NCBI GenBank assembly: GCA_965116925.1
Contig: OZ220744.1
Location: forward strand, 672,001 to 736,000
Source: Candidatus Poribacteria bacterium
GTDB taxonomy: Bacteria > Poribacteria > WGA-4E > PCPOR2b
DNA length: 64,000 nucleotides
Reading direction: 5' to 3'
Positions 14,532 through 56,981 of this stretch are shown piece after piece; position 1 is the stretch's first letter, and each line of letters opens with the position of its first letter. The notes under the pieces were generated by a model. That model was not told the origin of the DNA. It made no database searches and saw nothing but the letters and a program-made list of their open reading frames with translations. A program made the translations under genes and the position numbers.

Positions 14532-14712
14532 CGCTCCAGAGGAGCGATATGTTTATAGAACGGCGATATGCCCAAACCCCGCGCTCCAGATGAAGATTAA
14601 TTTATTAATTGGGTAATTTCCGAGCGATGTCCGGTGCGGTTTGCAACCGCACCTACCGGGTCTGGGGAAATATAGAATTACCCGTTTAATTTCTTAAAAC
14701 CCATGAGGAGCG
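14532..14712. repeat. Doublet of palindrome family D (CGCTCC..GGAGCG); the second hairpin is split by an insertion
   Basis: Intact doublet at about 23207-23271; further copies at 25951, 26105, 26259; half copy at 63398. Confidence 0.75.
14590..14704. mobile_element. Family H palindromic element (115 bp) with a central GTAG-REP
   Basis: Ends ATGAAGATTAA...TTAAAACCCAT; sits in the centre of a family D hairpin. Confidence 0.75.
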
Positions 14713-26456: not shown

Positions 26457-26573
26457 ATGAAGATTAAAAAAACAGTTCGGTAATTGGCTAGCGACACCGG
26501 CGCGGTTTGAAACCGCGCCTACCGTGTGTTTCGAGGAAAATAGGGATTACCGATTTAAATACTTAAACTTCAT
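26457..26573. mobile_element. Family H element (117 bp) nested in the REP of a reversed family C element
   Basis: ATGAAGATTAA...TTAAACTTCAT; close match to 56809-56925. Confidence 0.8.
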
Positions 26574-26790: not shown

Positions 26791-29070
26791 ATGAGAAGGT
26801 TTTCAATTTTTCTTGTATTGATCTTATTTACTTATCCCTGTGCTGCATTCGGACAAGAGGTCCCAAACGGCACAGGGGAAATTTACGGTACAGTCTATCA
26901 GGGGGATCTTGAGCAGCCGGTTGCATCCGCGCTGGTCCGCATTGTAGAAACAAATCAGCGCGTCACAACCGATCAGAACGGCGAATTTCGATTCCCCAAC
27001 CTGTCACCCGGAACATATACACTTACCACAGCCGCTTCCGGTTATAATCCACCGGAGGATGTTGTTGTCACCATCGAACCGGGAGAAACAACCGAACTTA
27101 AAATTTATCTTGAACAGATTGCAGTCGAACTTGATGAGGTAGAAGTGACGGGAGAACGTGCTGCGTCACCCGTTGGCAGACAAACTTTAAGCAGCTCCGA
27201 GATCCAGCGCGTCCCCGGTTCCACAGGGGATGCCCTGCGCGCCCTACAAGCCCTACCCAGTGTCGGTGTCGCAAACGACTTTAGCGGCGCGCTCTATATC
27301 CGCGGCGGCTCCGATGAAGACAACCTCTACTACTTTGACCGGGTGCCAATCGGCTATCCCTACCATTTCGGTGGAATCGTCTCGTCCCTCAGCTCCGAAG
27401 TCATCGAGCGGATCGATGTCTACGCCGGCGGTTACGGTGCCGAATTCGGCGTCGATTCGCAGGCAGTGATCGACATCTATTCCCGTAACAAAAACACGGA
27501 CGGCTTCCGCGCAAAGTTGAATCTGAATGTCCTCTACTCCGAAGGGCTATTAGAGGGAAAAATCAGTGATCAAGGGTTCTGGTATTTTGCCGGACGCCGA
27601 AGTTACATCGACCTATTCCTTGACTCACTGGCGTTTGACAGCGGGGAAATCACCGCTTTCCCCCGGTTCTGGGATTATCAGCTCAAGGGAGGCTATGACC
27701 TCAATGATAAGCATCAACTCTCTCTGAACATATTCGCTTCTGGTGACAGTTTTGCACTCAAGCTGGATGGCGAAGATGTGGACCAGGATTTTAGAGGAAA
27801 TGTTAGCTTCGGGAGCGGCTTTGAGGGGGCTGGTATTCACCTCCGTTCTCGGTTCACAGACCGGCTGACCTCATTTTTATCTTTGACCCGATCCGATTTC
27901 CAATTTGACGTCAGGGCTGGTCCCGAAATATCTCTGACGATTGATGCACCAGATTACTTGCTTCGCGAGGACCTCACCTACACCTTAAACCCGAAACATC
28001 AACTTGAAACTGGGGTGATATTTGGATTTGAAACGGGCAGAGCGGTTGGCACGGGTAACCGTCCGCCCGATGAGGGTGAGGTCGATTACGATTTTCGGCT
28101 CGCCGAAAGGCAAACATTCGATGAATCCGTATCTAGTCGACGAATGGAAGTGTACCTACAAGACCGGTATAAAGTGTTGCCATTTTTATCAGTTGCACTC
28201 GGTTTACGCGTGGATTACTTTAGCCTTGTTGACGAGTTTTCTATCCAACCGCGTGGAAGCCTCCTGTTAGACATTATGGAAGGTTCTCAACTCCAACTCT
28301 CTTACGGCAACTATCATCAGGTGCCGGGACCACCGCGACTTACCCAAAGCGTTGGAAATCCCGACTTGACTACAAGCGAAGCCAGTCACTATGTCTTGGA
28401 ATTCACACGCCAAGTTGCAGAGGGGACAGAATTCAAATTCGCAGGCTATTACAAAGATCTTACACACCTTGTGACTAACGATGAGGATATGAAATACCTT
28501 AACCAAGGGGTTGGATTCGCACAGGGGACGGAGGTGTTCCTACGCCATCGCGCCGGAGATCGATTCTTAGGTTGGGGATCCTACACCTATGGAGTTTCTA
28601 AACGACGTGACCGACCAGAGGACCCGTATCGCTACTATTCGTTTGACCAGACACACGTTGCGACCTTGGCGGCAACTTATAGACTCACGCCGACTTGGGA
28701 GATCGGTCTAAAATGGCAGTACCGAACTGGCAATCCCTATACCCCAGAGCTAGGCGTGACCCGTGTAATTGATCGACGCAACGGCGAACCCATCTACATT
28801 CCCATTTACGGGGACATAAATTCGGAACGACTTCCACCCTACCACCGGTTGGATGTGAAAATCAGTAAAGCGTTTCGATTTAACAGTTGGGAGATGAGTC
28901 TCTTTCTTGAACTCTTGAACGCCTATAACCGTAAAAACCTACTCACCTATAGTTACAGTGACGATTATGATGATGATGAAAGAGAGGTAATCTACTATGA
29001 TGGAGATGAAAGAGAAGAAATCTACCAATTTCCGATCATCCCCTACCTAGGAATTACCACCGAGTTTTAA
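26791..29070 (+). CDS. TonB-dependent receptor with N-terminal carboxypeptidase-regulatory-like domain
   Basis: Signal peptide; LDEVEVTG; plug motif IRGG; RLPPYHRLD; terminal Phe. Confidence 0.9.
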   Translation: MRRFSIFLVLILFTYPCAAFGQEVPNGTGEIYGTVYQGDLEQPVASALVRIVETNQRVTTDQNGEFRFPNLSPGTYTLTTAASGYNPPEDVVVTIEPGETTELKIYLEQIAVELDEVEVTGERAASPVGRQTLSSSEIQRVPGSTGDALRALQALPSVGVANDFSGALYIRGGSDEDNLYYFDRVPIGYPYHFGGIVSSLSSEVIERIDVYAGGYGAEFGVDSQAVIDIYSRNKNTDGFRAKLNLNVLYSEGLLEGKISDQGFWYFAGRRSYIDLFLDSLAFDSGEITAFPRFWDYQLKGGYDLNDKHQLSLNIFASGDSFALKLDGEDVDQDFRGNVSFGSGFEGAGIHLRSRFTDRLTSFLSLTRSDFQFDVRAGPEISLTIDAPDYLLREDLTYTLNPKHQLETGVIFGFETGRAVGTGNRPPDEGEVDYDFRLAERQTFDESVSSRRMEVYLQDRYKVLPFLSVALGLRVDYFSLVDEFSIQPRGSLLLDIMEGSQLQLSYGNYHQVPGPPRLTQSVGNPDLTTSEASHYVLEFTRQVAEGTEFKFAGYYKDLTHLVTNDEDMKYLNQGVGFAQGTEVFLRHRAGDRFLGWGSYTYGVSKRRDRPEDPYRYYSFDQTHVATLAATYRLTPTWEIGLKWQYRTGNPYTPELGVTRVIDRRNGEPIYIPIYGDINSERLPPYHRLDVKISKAFRFNSWEMSLFLELLNAYNRKNLLTYSYSDDYDDDEREVIYYDGDEREEIYQFPIIPYLGITTEF

Positions 29071-29211
29071 TGATCATTGAGGAAATAGAACCGGAAATAA
29101 TTCCAGTTCGTATCTATCATAGAGAAACCGAATTTTCCCCAGCCCCGGTAGGTGCGGTTTCCAACCGCACCGAATTCAGTCCAACCCGATAAATAGGGAG
29201 GACAACCAAAC

Positions 29212-29685
29212 ATGAACACCGCTCCCAAACATCGAAGCCACAACCTCCGCAAAGGCAGAGCTTCCATACAAGGCACATATTACCACATCATCATCTGTAC
29301 ACACCAGCGACAGAAAATGCTAATGGACCCCACAATTGCATCAATTATCTTCAAAACATTCGATTGGCTCGAAACAGAGAACCGCCAAGAATGGGTATGT
29401 ATCTTGGTGATGCCGGATCATGTACACACGATTATTAAACTTGAACAAGGGCAGACCCTAGGACAAGTTTTGCATTCGATGAAACGCTTTACCGCCCGTG
29501 AGATTAACAAACATCTATCCCGGACGGGCTCCGTCTGGCAGCAAGGTTATAGCGATTGGGGCATTCGGGACGAGACGGTCTTAAACAAAACAATCCGCTA
29601 TTGTTATGTGAACCCTGTGAGAGCGGGTATAGTAGGGTCAGCTCGAGATTATCCGTATTGGCGGTGCAAGTTCCAGATGGAATAA
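29212..29685 (+). CDS. REP-associated tyrosine transposase (RAYT, Y1 HUH)
   Basis: YHIIICT, MPDHVH (HUH), VWQQGY, YCYVNPVRAG; flanked by inverted GTAG-REPs. Confidence 0.88.
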   Translation: MNTAPKHRSHNLRKGRASIQGTYYHIIICTHQRQKMLMDPTIASIIFKTFDWLETENRQEWVCILVMPDHVHTIIKLEQGQTLGQVLHSMKRFTAREINKHLSRTGSVWQQGYSDWGIRDETVLNKTIRYCYVNPVRAGIVGSARDYPYWRCKFQME

Positions 29686-30085
29686 TCGCTGTAGTATCGG
29701 TTGAAACGGCGCAGTTGAAAACAGCGCCTACCAGACAGGAGAACGGTACGGGCGGTTACAAACCGCACGGTGCAAGTTCCAGATGGAATAATCGCTGTAG
29801 TATCGGTTGAAACGGCGCAGTTGAAAACAGCGCCTACCAGACAGGAGAACGGTATGGGCGGTTACAAACCGCACGGTGCAAATTCCAGATGGAATAGTCG
29901 CCGTAATGTCAGTTGAACCGGCGCACTTGGAAACAGCGTCTACCAGACAGGAGAACGGTACGGGCGGTTACAAACCGCACGGTGCAAATTCCAGATGGAA
30001 TAATCGCTGTAGTATCGGTTGAAACGGCGCAGTTGAAAACAGCGCCTACCAGACGGGAGAACGGTACGGACGGTTACAAACCGCA
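29662..30085. repeat. Tandem repeat, 106-bp unit x4, containing the RAYT 3' end and two REPs
   Basis: Units start at 29662, 29768, 29874 and 29980. Confidence 0.93.
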
Positions 30086-30177
30086 CTAGGCATCGCTCGG
30101 AAATTACCGAATTAATAAATTAAACTTCATACAAAAACTCGGTTAATCGTTGAGACAATCTTCGTATCGGAGGACAC

Positions 30178-31644
30178 ATGCAACCCAATATTCTTATCTT
30201 TATGACCGATCAAGAACAAGCCGATGTGGTGCATCCAGACCATCCATGTATCACACCAAATGCTACGAGGTTAGCGCAGGAGGGGGTTCTTTTTAACCGT
30301 TCATTCTGTCCAACGGCACATTGCTGCCCCTCACGCGCAACATTTATGACAGGCGTATATCCCAGTCGGCACGGCATCTACAACAATGTCAGCAATCCGA
30401 CCGCCATCCACCACGAACTCTACGAAGGTGTCGGGATGTTCAGTGAGACACTCCGATCTTCGGGCTACAATTTGGCGTATGCCGGGAAATGGCATGTCAC
30501 CGACGCCGAGAACCCATCCGACCGCGGTTGGGAGGATCTGCACCTGACGGGGGGCAAAGGCAGCTACATGCACCGTTCAGTGGCGCAATGGCAAGAACAA
30601 GCCAAACAACCCGAATCGACAGAACGCCAGCGTGGGCAAATTCTCCGTCCCGGTTGGGGACACTACCAGTTGTATCAATCCTACCCGACCGACACACCGA
30701 AAGGCTACGAAGATCACCGAGATTATCGCGTTGTCCAATCTGGGATAGAGGCGTTGGGGCGACTGTCCCAAGCCGATGCGCCGTGGTGCCTATACATCGG
30801 ACCGAGCGGGCCCCACGACCCATTCATCGTGCCGGAGCGTTTCGCCCAAATGTATGACCCCAAAGAAATTCCGCTGCCCCCAAACTACCACGACACATTG
30901 GAAGACAAACCCCGCGCCTATCAGCGAGCGCGTCAGCAGTATTGGGATCAACTTTCGGAGGACGAAGTGCGCGAGTCCCTCCAGCACTATTGGGGATACT
31001 GCACAATGGAGGACGCGATGTTCGGTGAGGTGCTTGAGACACTGGAGGAGACAGGGCAGGCGGATAACACCCTTGTGCTACGAATGAGCGACCACGGCGA
31101 TTACTGCGGTGCACACGGCTTGTACCTCAAAGGGGTGCCGGCGTTCCGTGAGGCTTATAACATCGCCACAATTGCCCGTTGGCCCCAAGGGATCGCCAAT
31201 CCCAACCGCGAAGTCGATGACTTTGTCAGCCTCGCCGATTTCGCACCCACCTTCATCGAATTAGGGGGCGAATCCGTACCAGATGACCTGACAGGGAGGA
31301 GCCTCGTGCCATTCCTGAAAGACGAAACCCCCTCCGATTGGACGGACGCATTCTACACGCAATTCAACGGCGTTGAGCTGTATTACAGCCAGCGCGTTGT
31401 CACTACCAAAGAGTTCAAATACGTCTACAACGGCTTCGACTTCGACGAGGTATACGATCTGCGGAACGACCCGCACGAAATGGTGAACCTCAGCGACCAC
31501 CCCGATTATCAGGAGGTGAAGCGCGATTTGGTGCGTCGGATGTGGCGGTTCGCAGGACGCGAGGACGACATCATCTTCAACCCGTATGCAACGGTGGCAT
31601 TTGCGCCGTGGGGCCCCGCCGATGCCCTGCGCGATGAAGCGTAA
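30178..31644 (+). CDS. Sulfatase
   Basis: PNILIFMTDQ, CCPSRA, GKWH, PHDP, SDHG. Confidence 0.92.
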   Translation: MQPNILIFMTDQEQADVVHPDHPCITPNATRLAQEGVLFNRSFCPTAHCCPSRATFMTGVYPSRHGIYNNVSNPTAIHHELYEGVGMFSETLRSSGYNLAYAGKWHVTDAENPSDRGWEDLHLTGGKGSYMHRSVAQWQEQAKQPESTERQRGQILRPGWGHYQLYQSYPTDTPKGYEDHRDYRVVQSGIEALGRLSQADAPWCLYIGPSGPHDPFIVPERFAQMYDPKEIPLPPNYHDTLEDKPRAYQRARQQYWDQLSEDEVRESLQHYWGYCTMEDAMFGEVLETLEETGQADNTLVLRMSDHGDYCGAHGLYLKGVPAFREAYNIATIARWPQGIANPNREVDDFVSLADFAPTFIELGGESVPDDLTGRSLVPFLKDETPSDWTDAFYTQFNGVELYYSQRVVTTKEFKYVYNGFDFDEVYDLRNDPHEMVNLSDHPDYQEVKRDLVRRMWRFAGREDDIIFNPYATVAFAPWGPADALRDEA

Positions 31645-55961: not shown

Positions 55962-56285
55962 TAGGGGCATTTAATTCTCCGTATATTATTGTCTGAATCG
56001 CGGATTAACACGGATTAACGGATTACACGGATTAAAGACGACAGCCATACCGACCTTAACAATGTACAATGAATGCGCGACGCCCAACGGCGGGGAGACC
56101 AGATGCCCCGCCTACCGGGTGTGGATAGAATGTGCGACTACGAACAACGGGACATGACCTAAAATCGAAAACTATAGTAGATTTTAGAATTAATGGGACA
56201 CGCCAAACCGGTGCGGTTACAAACCGCACCTACCGGGGGGGTGCCAGTGTTTCTTTATTTTTTGAATTCACTATAAATGACCCTA
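55962..56285. mobile_element. Family I composite element, second copy
   Basis: Same ends as 45047-45326; flanks TTGTGATGAT / TTGTGATGAC; contains an intact family C copy (56173-56275). Confidence 0.65.
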
Positions 56286-56760: not shown

Positions 56761-56981
56761 TATAGTAGATTTTAGAATTAATGGGACACGCCAAACCGGT
56801 GCGGTTACATGAAAATTAAAAAAACAGTTCGGTAATTTGCTAACGACGCCGGCGCGGTTGAAAACCGCGCCTACCGTGTGTTTCGAGGAAAATCGGGATT
56901 ACCGATTTAAATACTTAAATCTCATCAAACCGCACCTACCGGGGGAGCGCAAGTGTTTCTTTATCTTTTGAATTTACTATA
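56761..56981. mobile_element. Family C element with a nested family H element (56809-56925)
   Basis: Removing 56809-56925 and one C restores a near-copy of 56173-56275. Confidence 0.85.

Follow-up and report, generated by a model that had tools for sequence, protein, structure and literature searches.

The segment at about 29137-30130 of the analyzed window (the whole stretch of 64,000 nucleotides) is best read as a REPtron, in which a RAYT gene is accompanied by GTAG-headed REPs of its own, inside an IS630-type MITE shell that was moved in trans or captured in place and whose left arm was later lost. New here is the RAYT as the content of an IS630-type shell; full-text word searches of open-access papers found no description of a RAYT inside IS630-type ends. 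The unit sits in the tip of a hairpin and ends in an IS630-type terminal repeat, so the RAYT was probably carried or captured and probably did not jump on its own. It probably acts on the REPs and not on the ends of family H, the repeat family whose right arm borders it.

The left neighbor is a TonB-dependent receptor gene on the forward strand (26791..29070) with Pfam CarboxypepD_reg and Plug domains, and orthologs of it were found in 19 of 19 genus relatives. It is followed by a spacer (29071..29131) that ends in the left half of a terminator-like hairpin (GAGAAACCGA, 29122-29131). This spacer is native, being orthologous and near-identical to the spacers of the relatives G006, G015, and G004, and the degenerate outer left arm that the first-pass annotation had placed before the gene does not exist. 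The next five bases, ATTTT (29132-29136), form an ambiguous junction: compared with the two-armed long element of G001, they could be the T-run of the hairpin or else the inner end of an H-type left arm (..TCTATATTTT) that was deleted. Position 29132 is A in the genome studied (G000) vs. G in relatives. The true insert covers about 29137-30130 (994 bp, with the left limit ambiguous within ATTTT), and not 29070-30144 as first proposed.

The insert begins on the forward strand with the CCCCAGCCCC flank and REP-A (29137..29171), which are at once the core of H elements and the 5' REP of the RAYT; REP-A has a GGTAG head (29147-29151) and a stem-loop (29151-29171). A short leader (29172..29211, forward strand) carries the ribosome-binding-like motif GGGAGGA and lacks two internal REPs that are present in the leaders of c2, G005, G015, G007, and G009. 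The intact RAYT gene (29212..29685, forward strand) codes for 157 amino acids. A 106-bp tandem array of 4.0 units (29662..30086, forward strand; TRF score 752, 92% matches), which was absent from the first-pass annotation, begins within the 3' end of the gene. Each unit is made up of the final 24 nt of the RAYT ORF, REP-B in inverted orientation, a linker, and REP-A', with unit identities of 90-99%. The same strand continues with the H right arm (30091..30130), a terminal inverted repeat (TIR) of IS630 type whose tip (..CTTCAT) lies at 30130. Next comes the right half of the native hairpin (ACAAAAACTCGGTT, 30131..30144), whose first base is the central A of the hairpin according to the empty sites in G014, G018, and G006. 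The right neighbor is a sulfatase gene (30178..31644, forward strand; Pfam Sulfatase 4.3e-40), which lies less than 1.5 kb after the TonB receptor gene in 17 of 18 relatives. Both junctions were bridged with 0 differences by Logan contigs of public runs, the left one (29040-29171) in run X2 and the right one (30094-30299) in run X1, which may be the source sample, disregarding 'joints' with sides shorter than 30 nt at REPs. No contig joins across an empty site, and as contigs cannot show absence, they are uninformative on polymorphism.

The gene and its repeats have the makeup of a REPtron, which the cited part of the REPtron literature describes as a RAYT gene with GTAG-headed REPs or BIMEs in inverted orientation on its flanks (Nunvar et al., 2010; PMC2817692). 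The protein matched Pfam Y1_Tnp (PF01797; 1.8e-14, 54.3 bits vs. a cut-off of 23) and NCBIfam REP_Tyr_transpos (NF047646; 121.5 bits vs. a cut-off of 80, above the equivalog cut-off), and its residues H70-V-H72, Y130, and Y132 are invariant among 9 orthologs. REP-A lies upstream (29147-29171), an inverted REP-B begins 23 nt downstream of the stop codon, and 131 headed REP-A copies occur genome-wide. Accordingly, the Y1 HUH domain, the HUH motif with a C-terminal tyrosine, the inverted GT(A/G)G-headed REPs, and the abundant cognate REP of RAYTs and REPtrons are all present. E. coli TnpA-REP (PDB 4ER8) is counted with the REPtrons among the closest known systems. The ORF is intact, and its dN/dS ratios vs. 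relatives (0.17-0.29) indicate purifying selection. The protein matched PDB 2fyx (E 2.7e-8), so fold and family are related to those of IS200/IS605 elements, and subterminal hairpins beside the gene are a further likeness. However, autonomous IS200/IS605 elements have near-identical copies, hairpin-defined ends, and no TIRs. The RAYT unit is not one of them, since its best match within the genome has 91.9% identity, its right end is a TIR tip, and its score of 44.5 on the NCBIfam IS200 model is below the cut-off of 55.

The first-pass annotation had the RAYT enclosed by family-H ends, and this was true of one side only. The right end (30091-30130, ..CATCGCTCGGAAATTACCGAATTAATAAATTAAACTTCAT) is a true H arm, with 90% identity over 60 nt (E 5e-17) to the H copy at 14590..14704, and the 18-mer CATCGCTCGGAAATTACC occurs 2 times in the 64,000-nt window vs. 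0.03 expected. That copy, the 115-bp reference mini on the reverse strand, consists of a left arm, a REP-A core, and a right arm, and occupies the loop of a CGCTCC..GGAGCG hairpin. The left edge shares with family H only the core, namely CCCCAGNCCC and the REP hairpin; the left end (..TTTTCCCCAGCCCCGGTAGGTGCGGTT, 29133-29159) has 97% identity with most H copies across 39 nt and 92% with the copy in the window. The flank is mostly confined to family H, since CCCCAGNCCCGGTAGGTGCGGTT has 30 copies in the genome and 23 of these carry a complete H-type left arm. It did hold, by alignment, that collapsing the first and last REP of the unit yields the form of the mini.

The ends of family H led to a different transposase. 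An IS630-family IS of 1241 bp is present in two genome copies (1224/1241 identical) and codes for a transposase of 384 aa (Pfam DDE_3 1.3e-19; NCBIfam NF033545 for IS630, 161 bits vs. a cut-off of 100). Counted from the tip, 27 of 30 bases agree with end A of this IS both in the arm beside the RAYT and in the H right arm. By this sequence match, the H ends are TIRs of the 1241-bp IS and not RAYT ends. Family H thus has what marks IS630-family MITEs, TIRs that match a resident IS630-family IS with a DDE transposase, and the IS itself carries no RAYT. The two IS copies, like several minis, are located within REP loops, with nesting up to three deep. Among 25 near-full H copies, 22 were flanked by a stem of 6 bp or more, the distance between element and stem was 2+2 nt in 22, and the same single base stood on both sides of the element in 24; only 0.6% of 5000 random positions reached a stem of at least 6 bp. 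A TA target duplication for the H arms was rejected on these one-base repeats (24/25) and 2+2-nt distances (22/25). The right junction of the RAYT unit follows the same hairpin-center rule, as the arm tip abuts ACAAAAACTCGG, whose first base is the center of the hairpin. Because the minis end at TIR tips and the IS copies lie in hairpin loops, the DDE transposase, rather than the RAYT, would be the mobilizer.

The RAYT insertion is lineage-specific and was seen in this species only. Between the TonB receptor and sulfatase genes, a RAYT was found in 0 of 18 genus relatives, and the target hairpin is kept uninterrupted in 5 of the 18, as AAACCGAGTTTTTGACAAAAACTCGGTTT in G018, G014, and G006 and in a loop-variant form in G015 and G004. 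The gene is therefore not syntenically fixed, and copies do occur in other contexts, both in line with the reading of the first-pass annotation: the same RAYT lineage is found elsewhere, and the place of the G007 copy holds no RAYT in G000. The lineage has two full copies and one relic in the genome and at least 3 verified sites in the genus. The closest other copies have 92-94% nucleotide identity to the one at 29212-29685, and the best pair (96%) is between two other genomes. The RAYT dS is 0.18-0.23 from every known copy, the second copy of the genome included, and the dS of the TonB gene to the closest relatives is 0.19-0.20. Because the RAYT and TonB values are comparable, they allow no claim of a recent insertion or of a horizontal transfer; judging from these distances, the insertion event may be old, and recent movement was not seen.

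The cited parts of earlier work (PMC2817692; PMC5581495) regard RAYTs as domesticated genes that are inherited vertically and do not move, and multiple copies and a changed chromosomal location were not seen for RAYTs in the cited part of Nunvar et al. (PMC2817692). The lineage described here does not have this pattern of a single copy at a fixed location, since there are two full copies and a relic, 0 of 18 relatives have the RAYT here, and the G007 copy is at another site. In addition to its several sites within the genus, it differs from known REPtrons, as far as described there, in that a TIR from a different transposon family borders the present copy. The locus is thus a concrete candidate route for the spread of a RAYT together with its repeats, within the ends of an unrelated DDE transposon, with an empty site known to the base and a junction that obeys the insertion rule of that transposon.

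Two-armed elements collinear with the RAYT unit were found in relatives. Four H-type MITEs of 241-242 nt, in G001, G007, and G018 (two copies), correspond to the RAYT unit without the RAYT ORF, which agrees with the earlier claim that unit and H-type minis are collinear. Their left core is 98% identical over 57 nt (29137-29171 region, vs. the core of the G001 long MITE) and their right part 88% over 101 nt. The right part aligns to the trailers of five RAYT loci from 5-14 nt past the stop codon, and the left part to the RAYT leader of G005. The G001 copy sits in a paralogous hairpin. A form of about 185 nt (10 copies) has a truncated REP-A and on this account looks like a deletion derivative. 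The modules that the unit has in common with the long MITEs are found in RAYT-less REP clusters too, such as that downstream of the second RAYT copy, so collinearity is no proof of descent, and the deletion-junction analysis is only suggestive of long MITEs descending from a RAYT unit. A RAYT relic of 49 codons at 6326.6 kb of the genome is preceded by a 14-nt H-type left-arm tip directly before CCCCAGG and REP-A; a right end or partner hairpin half was sought there, and the region, scrambled by other minis, has no clear end. Outward-facing arms on both sides were found at 0 of 45 distinct RAYT loci (14 from relatives and 40 from metagenome or genome contigs, minus 9 duplicates). The locus L069 was rejected as a two-armed RAYT element, as its two arms belong to separate complete MITEs. 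A metagenome scan with the single RAYT protein gave no matches, and one with a RAYT alignment gave 5 loci of 67-73% identity.

The anatomy, the empty sites, the match of the arm to the IS ends, the hairpin-center rule, and the collinearity with two-armed MITEs are observations, and from them we infer the mover of the unit and the order of events. Our leading account, held at slightly under an even chance, is that the RAYT unit is a 'long' member of family H that was cut and pasted whole by the IS630-family transposase and then lost its left arm. The element would at first have had two arms, with REP-A, the leader, the RAYT, and REP-B/REP-A between the H-type left arm and the H right arm, and would have been moved in trans by the transposase of the 1241-bp IS. 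Like all H elements, it would have landed at the center of a hairpin, in this case the central base of the terminator-like one downstream of the TonB receptor gene. The left arm, which is absent now and was presumably once present, would then have been lost along with the left loop bases, through a deletion of about 45 nt with short T-rich repeats at its ends. Finally, the 3' REP pair with the last 24 nt of the ORF may have been amplified to the four tandem units.

Capture in place is a possible but less probable course. A gene-less long H-type MITE with a REP cluster as its core would have been inserted into the hairpin by the IS630 transposase, this core would only later have acquired a copy of the RAYT, whether by ectopic gene conversion or recombination via the 60-100-nt REP modules common to MITE cores and RAYT leaders and trailers or by RAYT-catalyzed strand transfer at REPs, and the left arm would have been lost afterwards. 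The common form of long MITE is indeed RAYT-less (4 copies in 3 relatives, and 10 of the 185-nt form), the cores match RAYT flanks on both sides, REP clusters are very dynamic (tandem arrays, and a spacer at this one site that varies from 191 to more than 1500 bp among genomes), and a two-armed RAYT element was seen at 0 of the 45 loci. However, as the hairpin is empty in the closest relatives, capture needs one event more than movement as a unit. The homology tracts are also short and only 86-98% identical, and the relic at 6326.6 kb places a second RAYT beside an arm tip, which is easier if arm and RAYT travelled together.

It is a tentative and rather unlikely extension of the IS630 account that a REPtron packaged between IS630-type repeats was the parent of the H MITEs through a deletion series of 241, 185, and 115 nt, and that a DDE transposase homing to hairpin tips spreads REPs or REPINs and occasionally a RAYT. 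If true, one selfish system would be disseminating the enzyme, substrates, and target sites of another. The locus is also relevant to the question of what disseminates REPs in these sponge symbionts; 23 of the 30 REP-A copies with this flank are in IS630-type shells.

Transposition into this lineage could be dispensed with if a RAYT allele from an unsampled relative had replaced the native spacer by homologous recombination via the TonB receptor and sulfatase genes. The RAYT copy is about equally far from all known copies (dS 0.18-0.23), with no donor visible in the genome, and a small HicB-like gene in the spacer of many relatives (at least 9) is missing here. This reading is improbable, however, because the left spacer and both hairpin halves are of the native type common to G006, G015, and G004, and the insertion event would merely be shifted to another genome with the structure left unexplained. 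An autonomous Y1 transposon of the IS200/IS605 kind, with H ends and a RAYT that transfers both the unit and the minis into hairpin loops in single-stranded form, is highly improbable. In its favor, the ORF is intact and under purifying selection (dN/dS 0.17-0.29), the loop of a hairpin is a natural target for a single strand, the H core consists of the 5' REP of the RAYT and its flank, also kept at the locus L008 of another family (67% identical), and the unit did arrive at a new site, but H insertions end at TIR tips 35-40 nt from the REP, these are the tips of a RAYT-free IS630-family IS with its own DDE transposase that itself lies in hairpin loops, the RAYT has an H arm on one side only, and near-identical copies are lacking (96% between two other genomes, 92-94% to this one). 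The first-pass annotation had proposed such an autonomous parent, mobilizing hairpin-targeting minis, and had named a separate DDE transposase carrying H ends as what would speak against it; that is what the IS630-family element is, and the claim does not hold.

The carried or captured REPtron resembles several known systems in part, as far as the cited portions of the sources describe them. IS630-family MITEs include Correia/NEMIS, RUP, and Nezha (listed in PMC2817692 and PMC3733652). Like these, H elements are short, non-coding, and multi-copy, with TIRs that match a resident IS and probable mobilization in trans; unlike these, they target the central base of a hairpin loop with a one-base repeat instead of TA, and their core is a REP or REP cluster or, in one case, a whole RAYT gene. 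In mobile insertion cassettes (MICs) or transporter ISs, IS ends surround passenger genes and are activated by the cognate transposase (Varani et al., 2011; PMC3129680). Here too the passenger is not a transposase of that IS family and the IS transposase is encoded elsewhere in the genome, but the passenger is a transposase-derived gene of another class with its repeat substrates. MICs, of which IS231/MIC231 is an example, have both IS ends inverted around the passenger; the RAYT unit has a right arm only, its left flank is native spacer, and 0 of 45 RAYT loci are two-armed, so with a single surviving end it is not placed among MICs at present.

TIRtrons or TIRYTs are RAYT-like genes flanked by TIRs; these take the place of the REPs and are regarded as substrates of the enzyme itself (Di Nocera et al., 2013; PMC3733652). 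The present unit is similar in that a tyrosine-transposase gene is accompanied by terminal inverted repeats, which constitute a repeat family as well. However, it is no TIRtron, having REPs on both sides and a single TIR from an IS630-type DDE element. The REP dimers within long palindromes of Anabaena variabilis, as described in the cited part of PMC3733652, resemble the REP-in-shell layout of H elements. Finally, IS1397, ISPpu10, and others are bona fide ISs that use REPs as targets (PMC2817692). The 1241-bp IS, which has its own ends, similarly inserts into REP hairpins; it differs from the REP-targeting ISs in its family (IS630), in that unrelated hairpins are also targeted, and in that the derived MITEs carry the target within them. 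ISs of the IS1397/ISPpu10 type belong to the IS3 and IS110 families.

The spacer between the TonB-dependent receptor gene (26791-29070, Pfam) and the sulfatase gene (30178-31644, Pfam) is 1107 bp long. It begins with a 61-nt segment and contains REP-A, a GGTAG-headed REP hairpin (29147-29171) with CCCCAGCCCC directly before it, a 40-nt leader, a RAYT ORF of 157 aa (29212-29685), a tandem array of a 106-bp unit in 4.0 copies (29662-30086, TRF), and a 40-nt right arm of the H mini-element (MITE) family, CATCGCTCGGAAATTACCGAATTAATAAATTAAACTTCAT (30091-30130). Within every 106-bp unit, the terminal 24 nt of the ORF are followed by an inverted REP-B, which a linker separates from a variant of REP-A. 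The first two units are 99% identical and the third about 90%, so the array grew stepwise, with some steps being recent. The unit junction is located at the point at which the sequence of the RAYT 3' end is GGTGCAAG, which is similar to the REP-A left arm GGTGCGG. Other REPs in the window, at 26499-26519, 56210-56230, and 56851-56871, comprise two of the REP-C type (GGCGCGGTT..AACCGCGCC) and one REP-A. A 30-bp tandem repeat (2.0 copies, 28966-29025) lies within the 3' end of the receptor gene, and the alignment of its orthologues in G009, G007, and other relatives is 12 codons shorter.

The receptor gene has orthologues in 19 of 19 genus relatives, and 18 orthologous loci (L014-L031) were examined at this site. 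The first-pass annotation had called for an empty site in relatives, and such a site was found: the spacer is RAYT-free at 18 of 18 loci, none of which has a RAYT within 1.5 kb after the receptor gene, and an uninterrupted hairpin, AAACCGAGTTTTTGACAAAAACTCGGTTT, lies at an equal distance from the stop codon in G018, G014, and G006. A loop variant of this target hairpin is present in G015 and G004. Insertion of the RAYT unit in the hairpin tip is specific to this lineage. In the genome under study (G000), ACAAAAACTCGGTT comes directly after the arm tip ..CTTCAT and has the central base of the hairpin as its first base, so the right junction is exactly as the H insertion rule described below predicts. 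The left junction consists of the left hairpin half GAGAAACCGA, then ATTTT, then CCCCAG..., without the loop bases and without a whole arm. Public contigs confirmed both junctions; no empty allele was seen among these contigs, which cannot show its absence.

The sulfatase gene lies within 1.5 kb of the receptor gene at 17 of the 18 loci, with spacers of 191-1260 bp. In the closest relative, G018 (L014), a long ORF resembling IS605-type TnpB/OrfB by eye occupies the same spacer about 400-1530 nt after the receptor stop codon, inside a small HicB-like gene, and thus the sulfatase gene is more than 1.5 kb away. In many relatives (sequence shown for nine), the hairpin and the sulfatase gene are separated by a small ORF that looks HicB-like by eye (about 65 codons, MKNLVVTEE..). 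It is absent from G000 (30131-30177, compared with L015, L017, L018, and L031), where the deletion looks bounded by two CGGTT repeats.

In two H copies, the hairpin loop appeared interrupted. The REP loop of the H copy at genome 4122-4123.6 kb contains a second mini-element, C, and a 1241-bp element with ends ATGAAGATTAATTTATTAATTCGGTAAT.. and ..ATTACCGAATTATTTTTTTAATCTTCAT lies in the REP loop of C. This element codes for a 384-aa protein with DDE_3 and HTH domains that scored 161 bits against the NCBIfam IS630 model (cut-off 100); a second copy shares 1224 of 1241 positions with it and shows the same kind of nesting. Both three-deep nests (C1:4122094-4123590 and C1:1430340-1431720) are outside the window; in them a 117-nt C mini-element carries the IS630-type IS in its REP loop and itself lies in the REP loop of an H mini-element or a T-type MITE. 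The H right arm and the RAYT-side arm each share 27 of 30 bases from the tip with IS end A. Among 25 near-full H copies, a flanking stem of at least 6 bp was found in 22 (against 0.6% of 5000 random genome positions), exactly two bases per side between stem and element in 22, and the same base adjoining the element on either side in 24. The terminal match to the IS and these stem statistics identify H as a MITE of an IS630-type element with the central base of hairpin loops as its landing site.

The first-pass annotation had regarded the RAYT gene with H ends as an autonomous parent that mobilizes H. This is contradicted by the separate IS630-family DDE IS that carries the H ends, a finding which that annotation had itself named as contrary to its proposal, and self-mobility of the RAYT with H ends is therefore very improbable. 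The anatomy it described is real and unusual, but the ends were assigned to the wrong enzyme. The right edge does align with the family-H member at 14590-14704, at 90% over 60 nt (E 5e-17), and the window contains two occurrences of an 18-mer from this match, where 0.03 would be expected. The left-edge match is also real (97% over 39 nt to most H copies) but covers only the core, and there is no degenerate outer left arm, as the spacers of G006, G015, and G004 are nearly identical to 29071-29131. The CCCCAGNCCC flank is not a general REP feature: it is carried by 30 of the 131 headed REP-A copies in the genome, 23 with a complete H-type left arm, 2 with another arm type, and 5 with no arm or a remnant only, including the window locus, the REP 3' of a second RAYT copy, and a RAYT relic.

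The final 114 nt of the RAYT unit are multi-copy in G007, G018, G011, and G001, and the copies retrieved each have two arms and lie in a hairpin loop; the one in G001 occupies a paralogous hairpin (GAAACCGAATTTTTGG|ATGAGGTTTCAGAAAATAATTCGGTAATTCTATATTTTCCCCAGG..). The long form (241-242 nt; G001, G007, and two in G018) contains a left arm, CCCCAGG, REP-A, GAATTCAGTCCAACCC, a third REP, REP-B, linker, REP-A, and a right arm. In the short form (about 185 nt, 10 copies), the first REP-A ends after GGTAGGTGCG, and this form resembles a deletion derivative. The long form matches the RAYT unit on the left (98% over 57 nt, reaching 23 nt before the ATG) and on the right (88% over 101 nt), indicating that the unit amounts to a long H-type element that lacks the left arm and has a RAYT in its middle. 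Its left part also aligns to the G005 leader, and its right part to the trailers of five RAYT loci from 5-14 nt past the stop codon.

We tentatively favor the reading that the IS630 transposase, acting in trans, placed a REPtron (a RAYT gene with its own REPs) in an IS630-type shell into the hairpin tip, and that the left side has decayed since. A single deletion of about 45 nt between T-runs would convert a G001-type two-armed junction into the G000 left junction, and would also account for the A at 29132 where relatives carry G. The main rival, in which insertion of an ordinary long MITE preceded the copying of the RAYT into its REP core, is possible but rather unlikely; the modules shared by the long form and the RAYT unit are also found in RAYT-less REP clusters. 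The alignments may thus be read in either direction, from parent to deletion derivative or from a MITE gaining a gene.

The 157-aa protein is a RAYT (Pfam Y1_Tnp, 1.8e-14), with 121.5 bits against NCBIfam REP_Tyr_transpos (cut-off 80) and 44.5 against the IS200 model, under the cut-off of 55. TnpA-REP 4ER8 was among its weak PDB sequence matches, and residues H70-V-H72, Y130, and Y132 are unchanged across nine orthologues. RAYT copies of at least 87% identity occur in 5 of 19 genus relatives. The second copy in the genome, at 328.9 kb (88.5% identical in protein, 91.9% in nucleotides), is syntenic on both sides with the G005 copy. The relic of 49 codons at genome 6326.6 kb is preceded by, in order, the 14-nt tip of an H-type left arm, TTCT, and CCCCAGG-REP-A. 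The G000 site corresponding to the first RAYT copy of G007 is just a 282-bp spacer with another MITE. The dN/dS ratios (0.14-0.46 overall, 0.17-0.29 for the window copy) indicate that selection maintains the gene. The dS between the window RAYT and all other copies (0.18-0.23) is about equal to that of the receptor gene between G000 and its closest relatives (0.19-0.20), so the insertion may date from any time since their split.

Parts of the literature report RAYTs without changes of location (PMC2817692) and their duplication as rare (PMC5581495), and treat MICs and transporter ISs (PMC3129680) and TIRtrons, also REP dimers inside long palindromes (PMC3733652). No account of a RAYT enclosed by IS630-type ends emerged from word searches of open-access full texts.

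None of 45 distinct RAYT loci is flanked on each side by an arm facing outward; at several, a single arm or a full MITE lies next to or within the REPs. At L049 and L063, which belong to a 70-72% RAYT lineage, an outward-facing IS630-type arm interrupts the loop of the outermost upstream REP, and neither a partner arm nor the other REP half is present, which parallels the one-armed state in the window. The G018 RAYT (L006) is broken just before its stop codon, about 480-570 nt after its start, by a mini-element (GGCTCATGT..ACATGAGC, about 90 nt) with a core of the same hairpin type, AAACCGAGTTTT..AAAACTCGGTTT; the 5' end of the gene is damaged too. In G009 (L005/L056), half-H units, that is, CCCCAG-REP plus a right arm without a left arm, lie upstream of the RAYT and twice in a tandem array downstream of it; evidently the arm was incorporated into a REP-cluster repeat unit.
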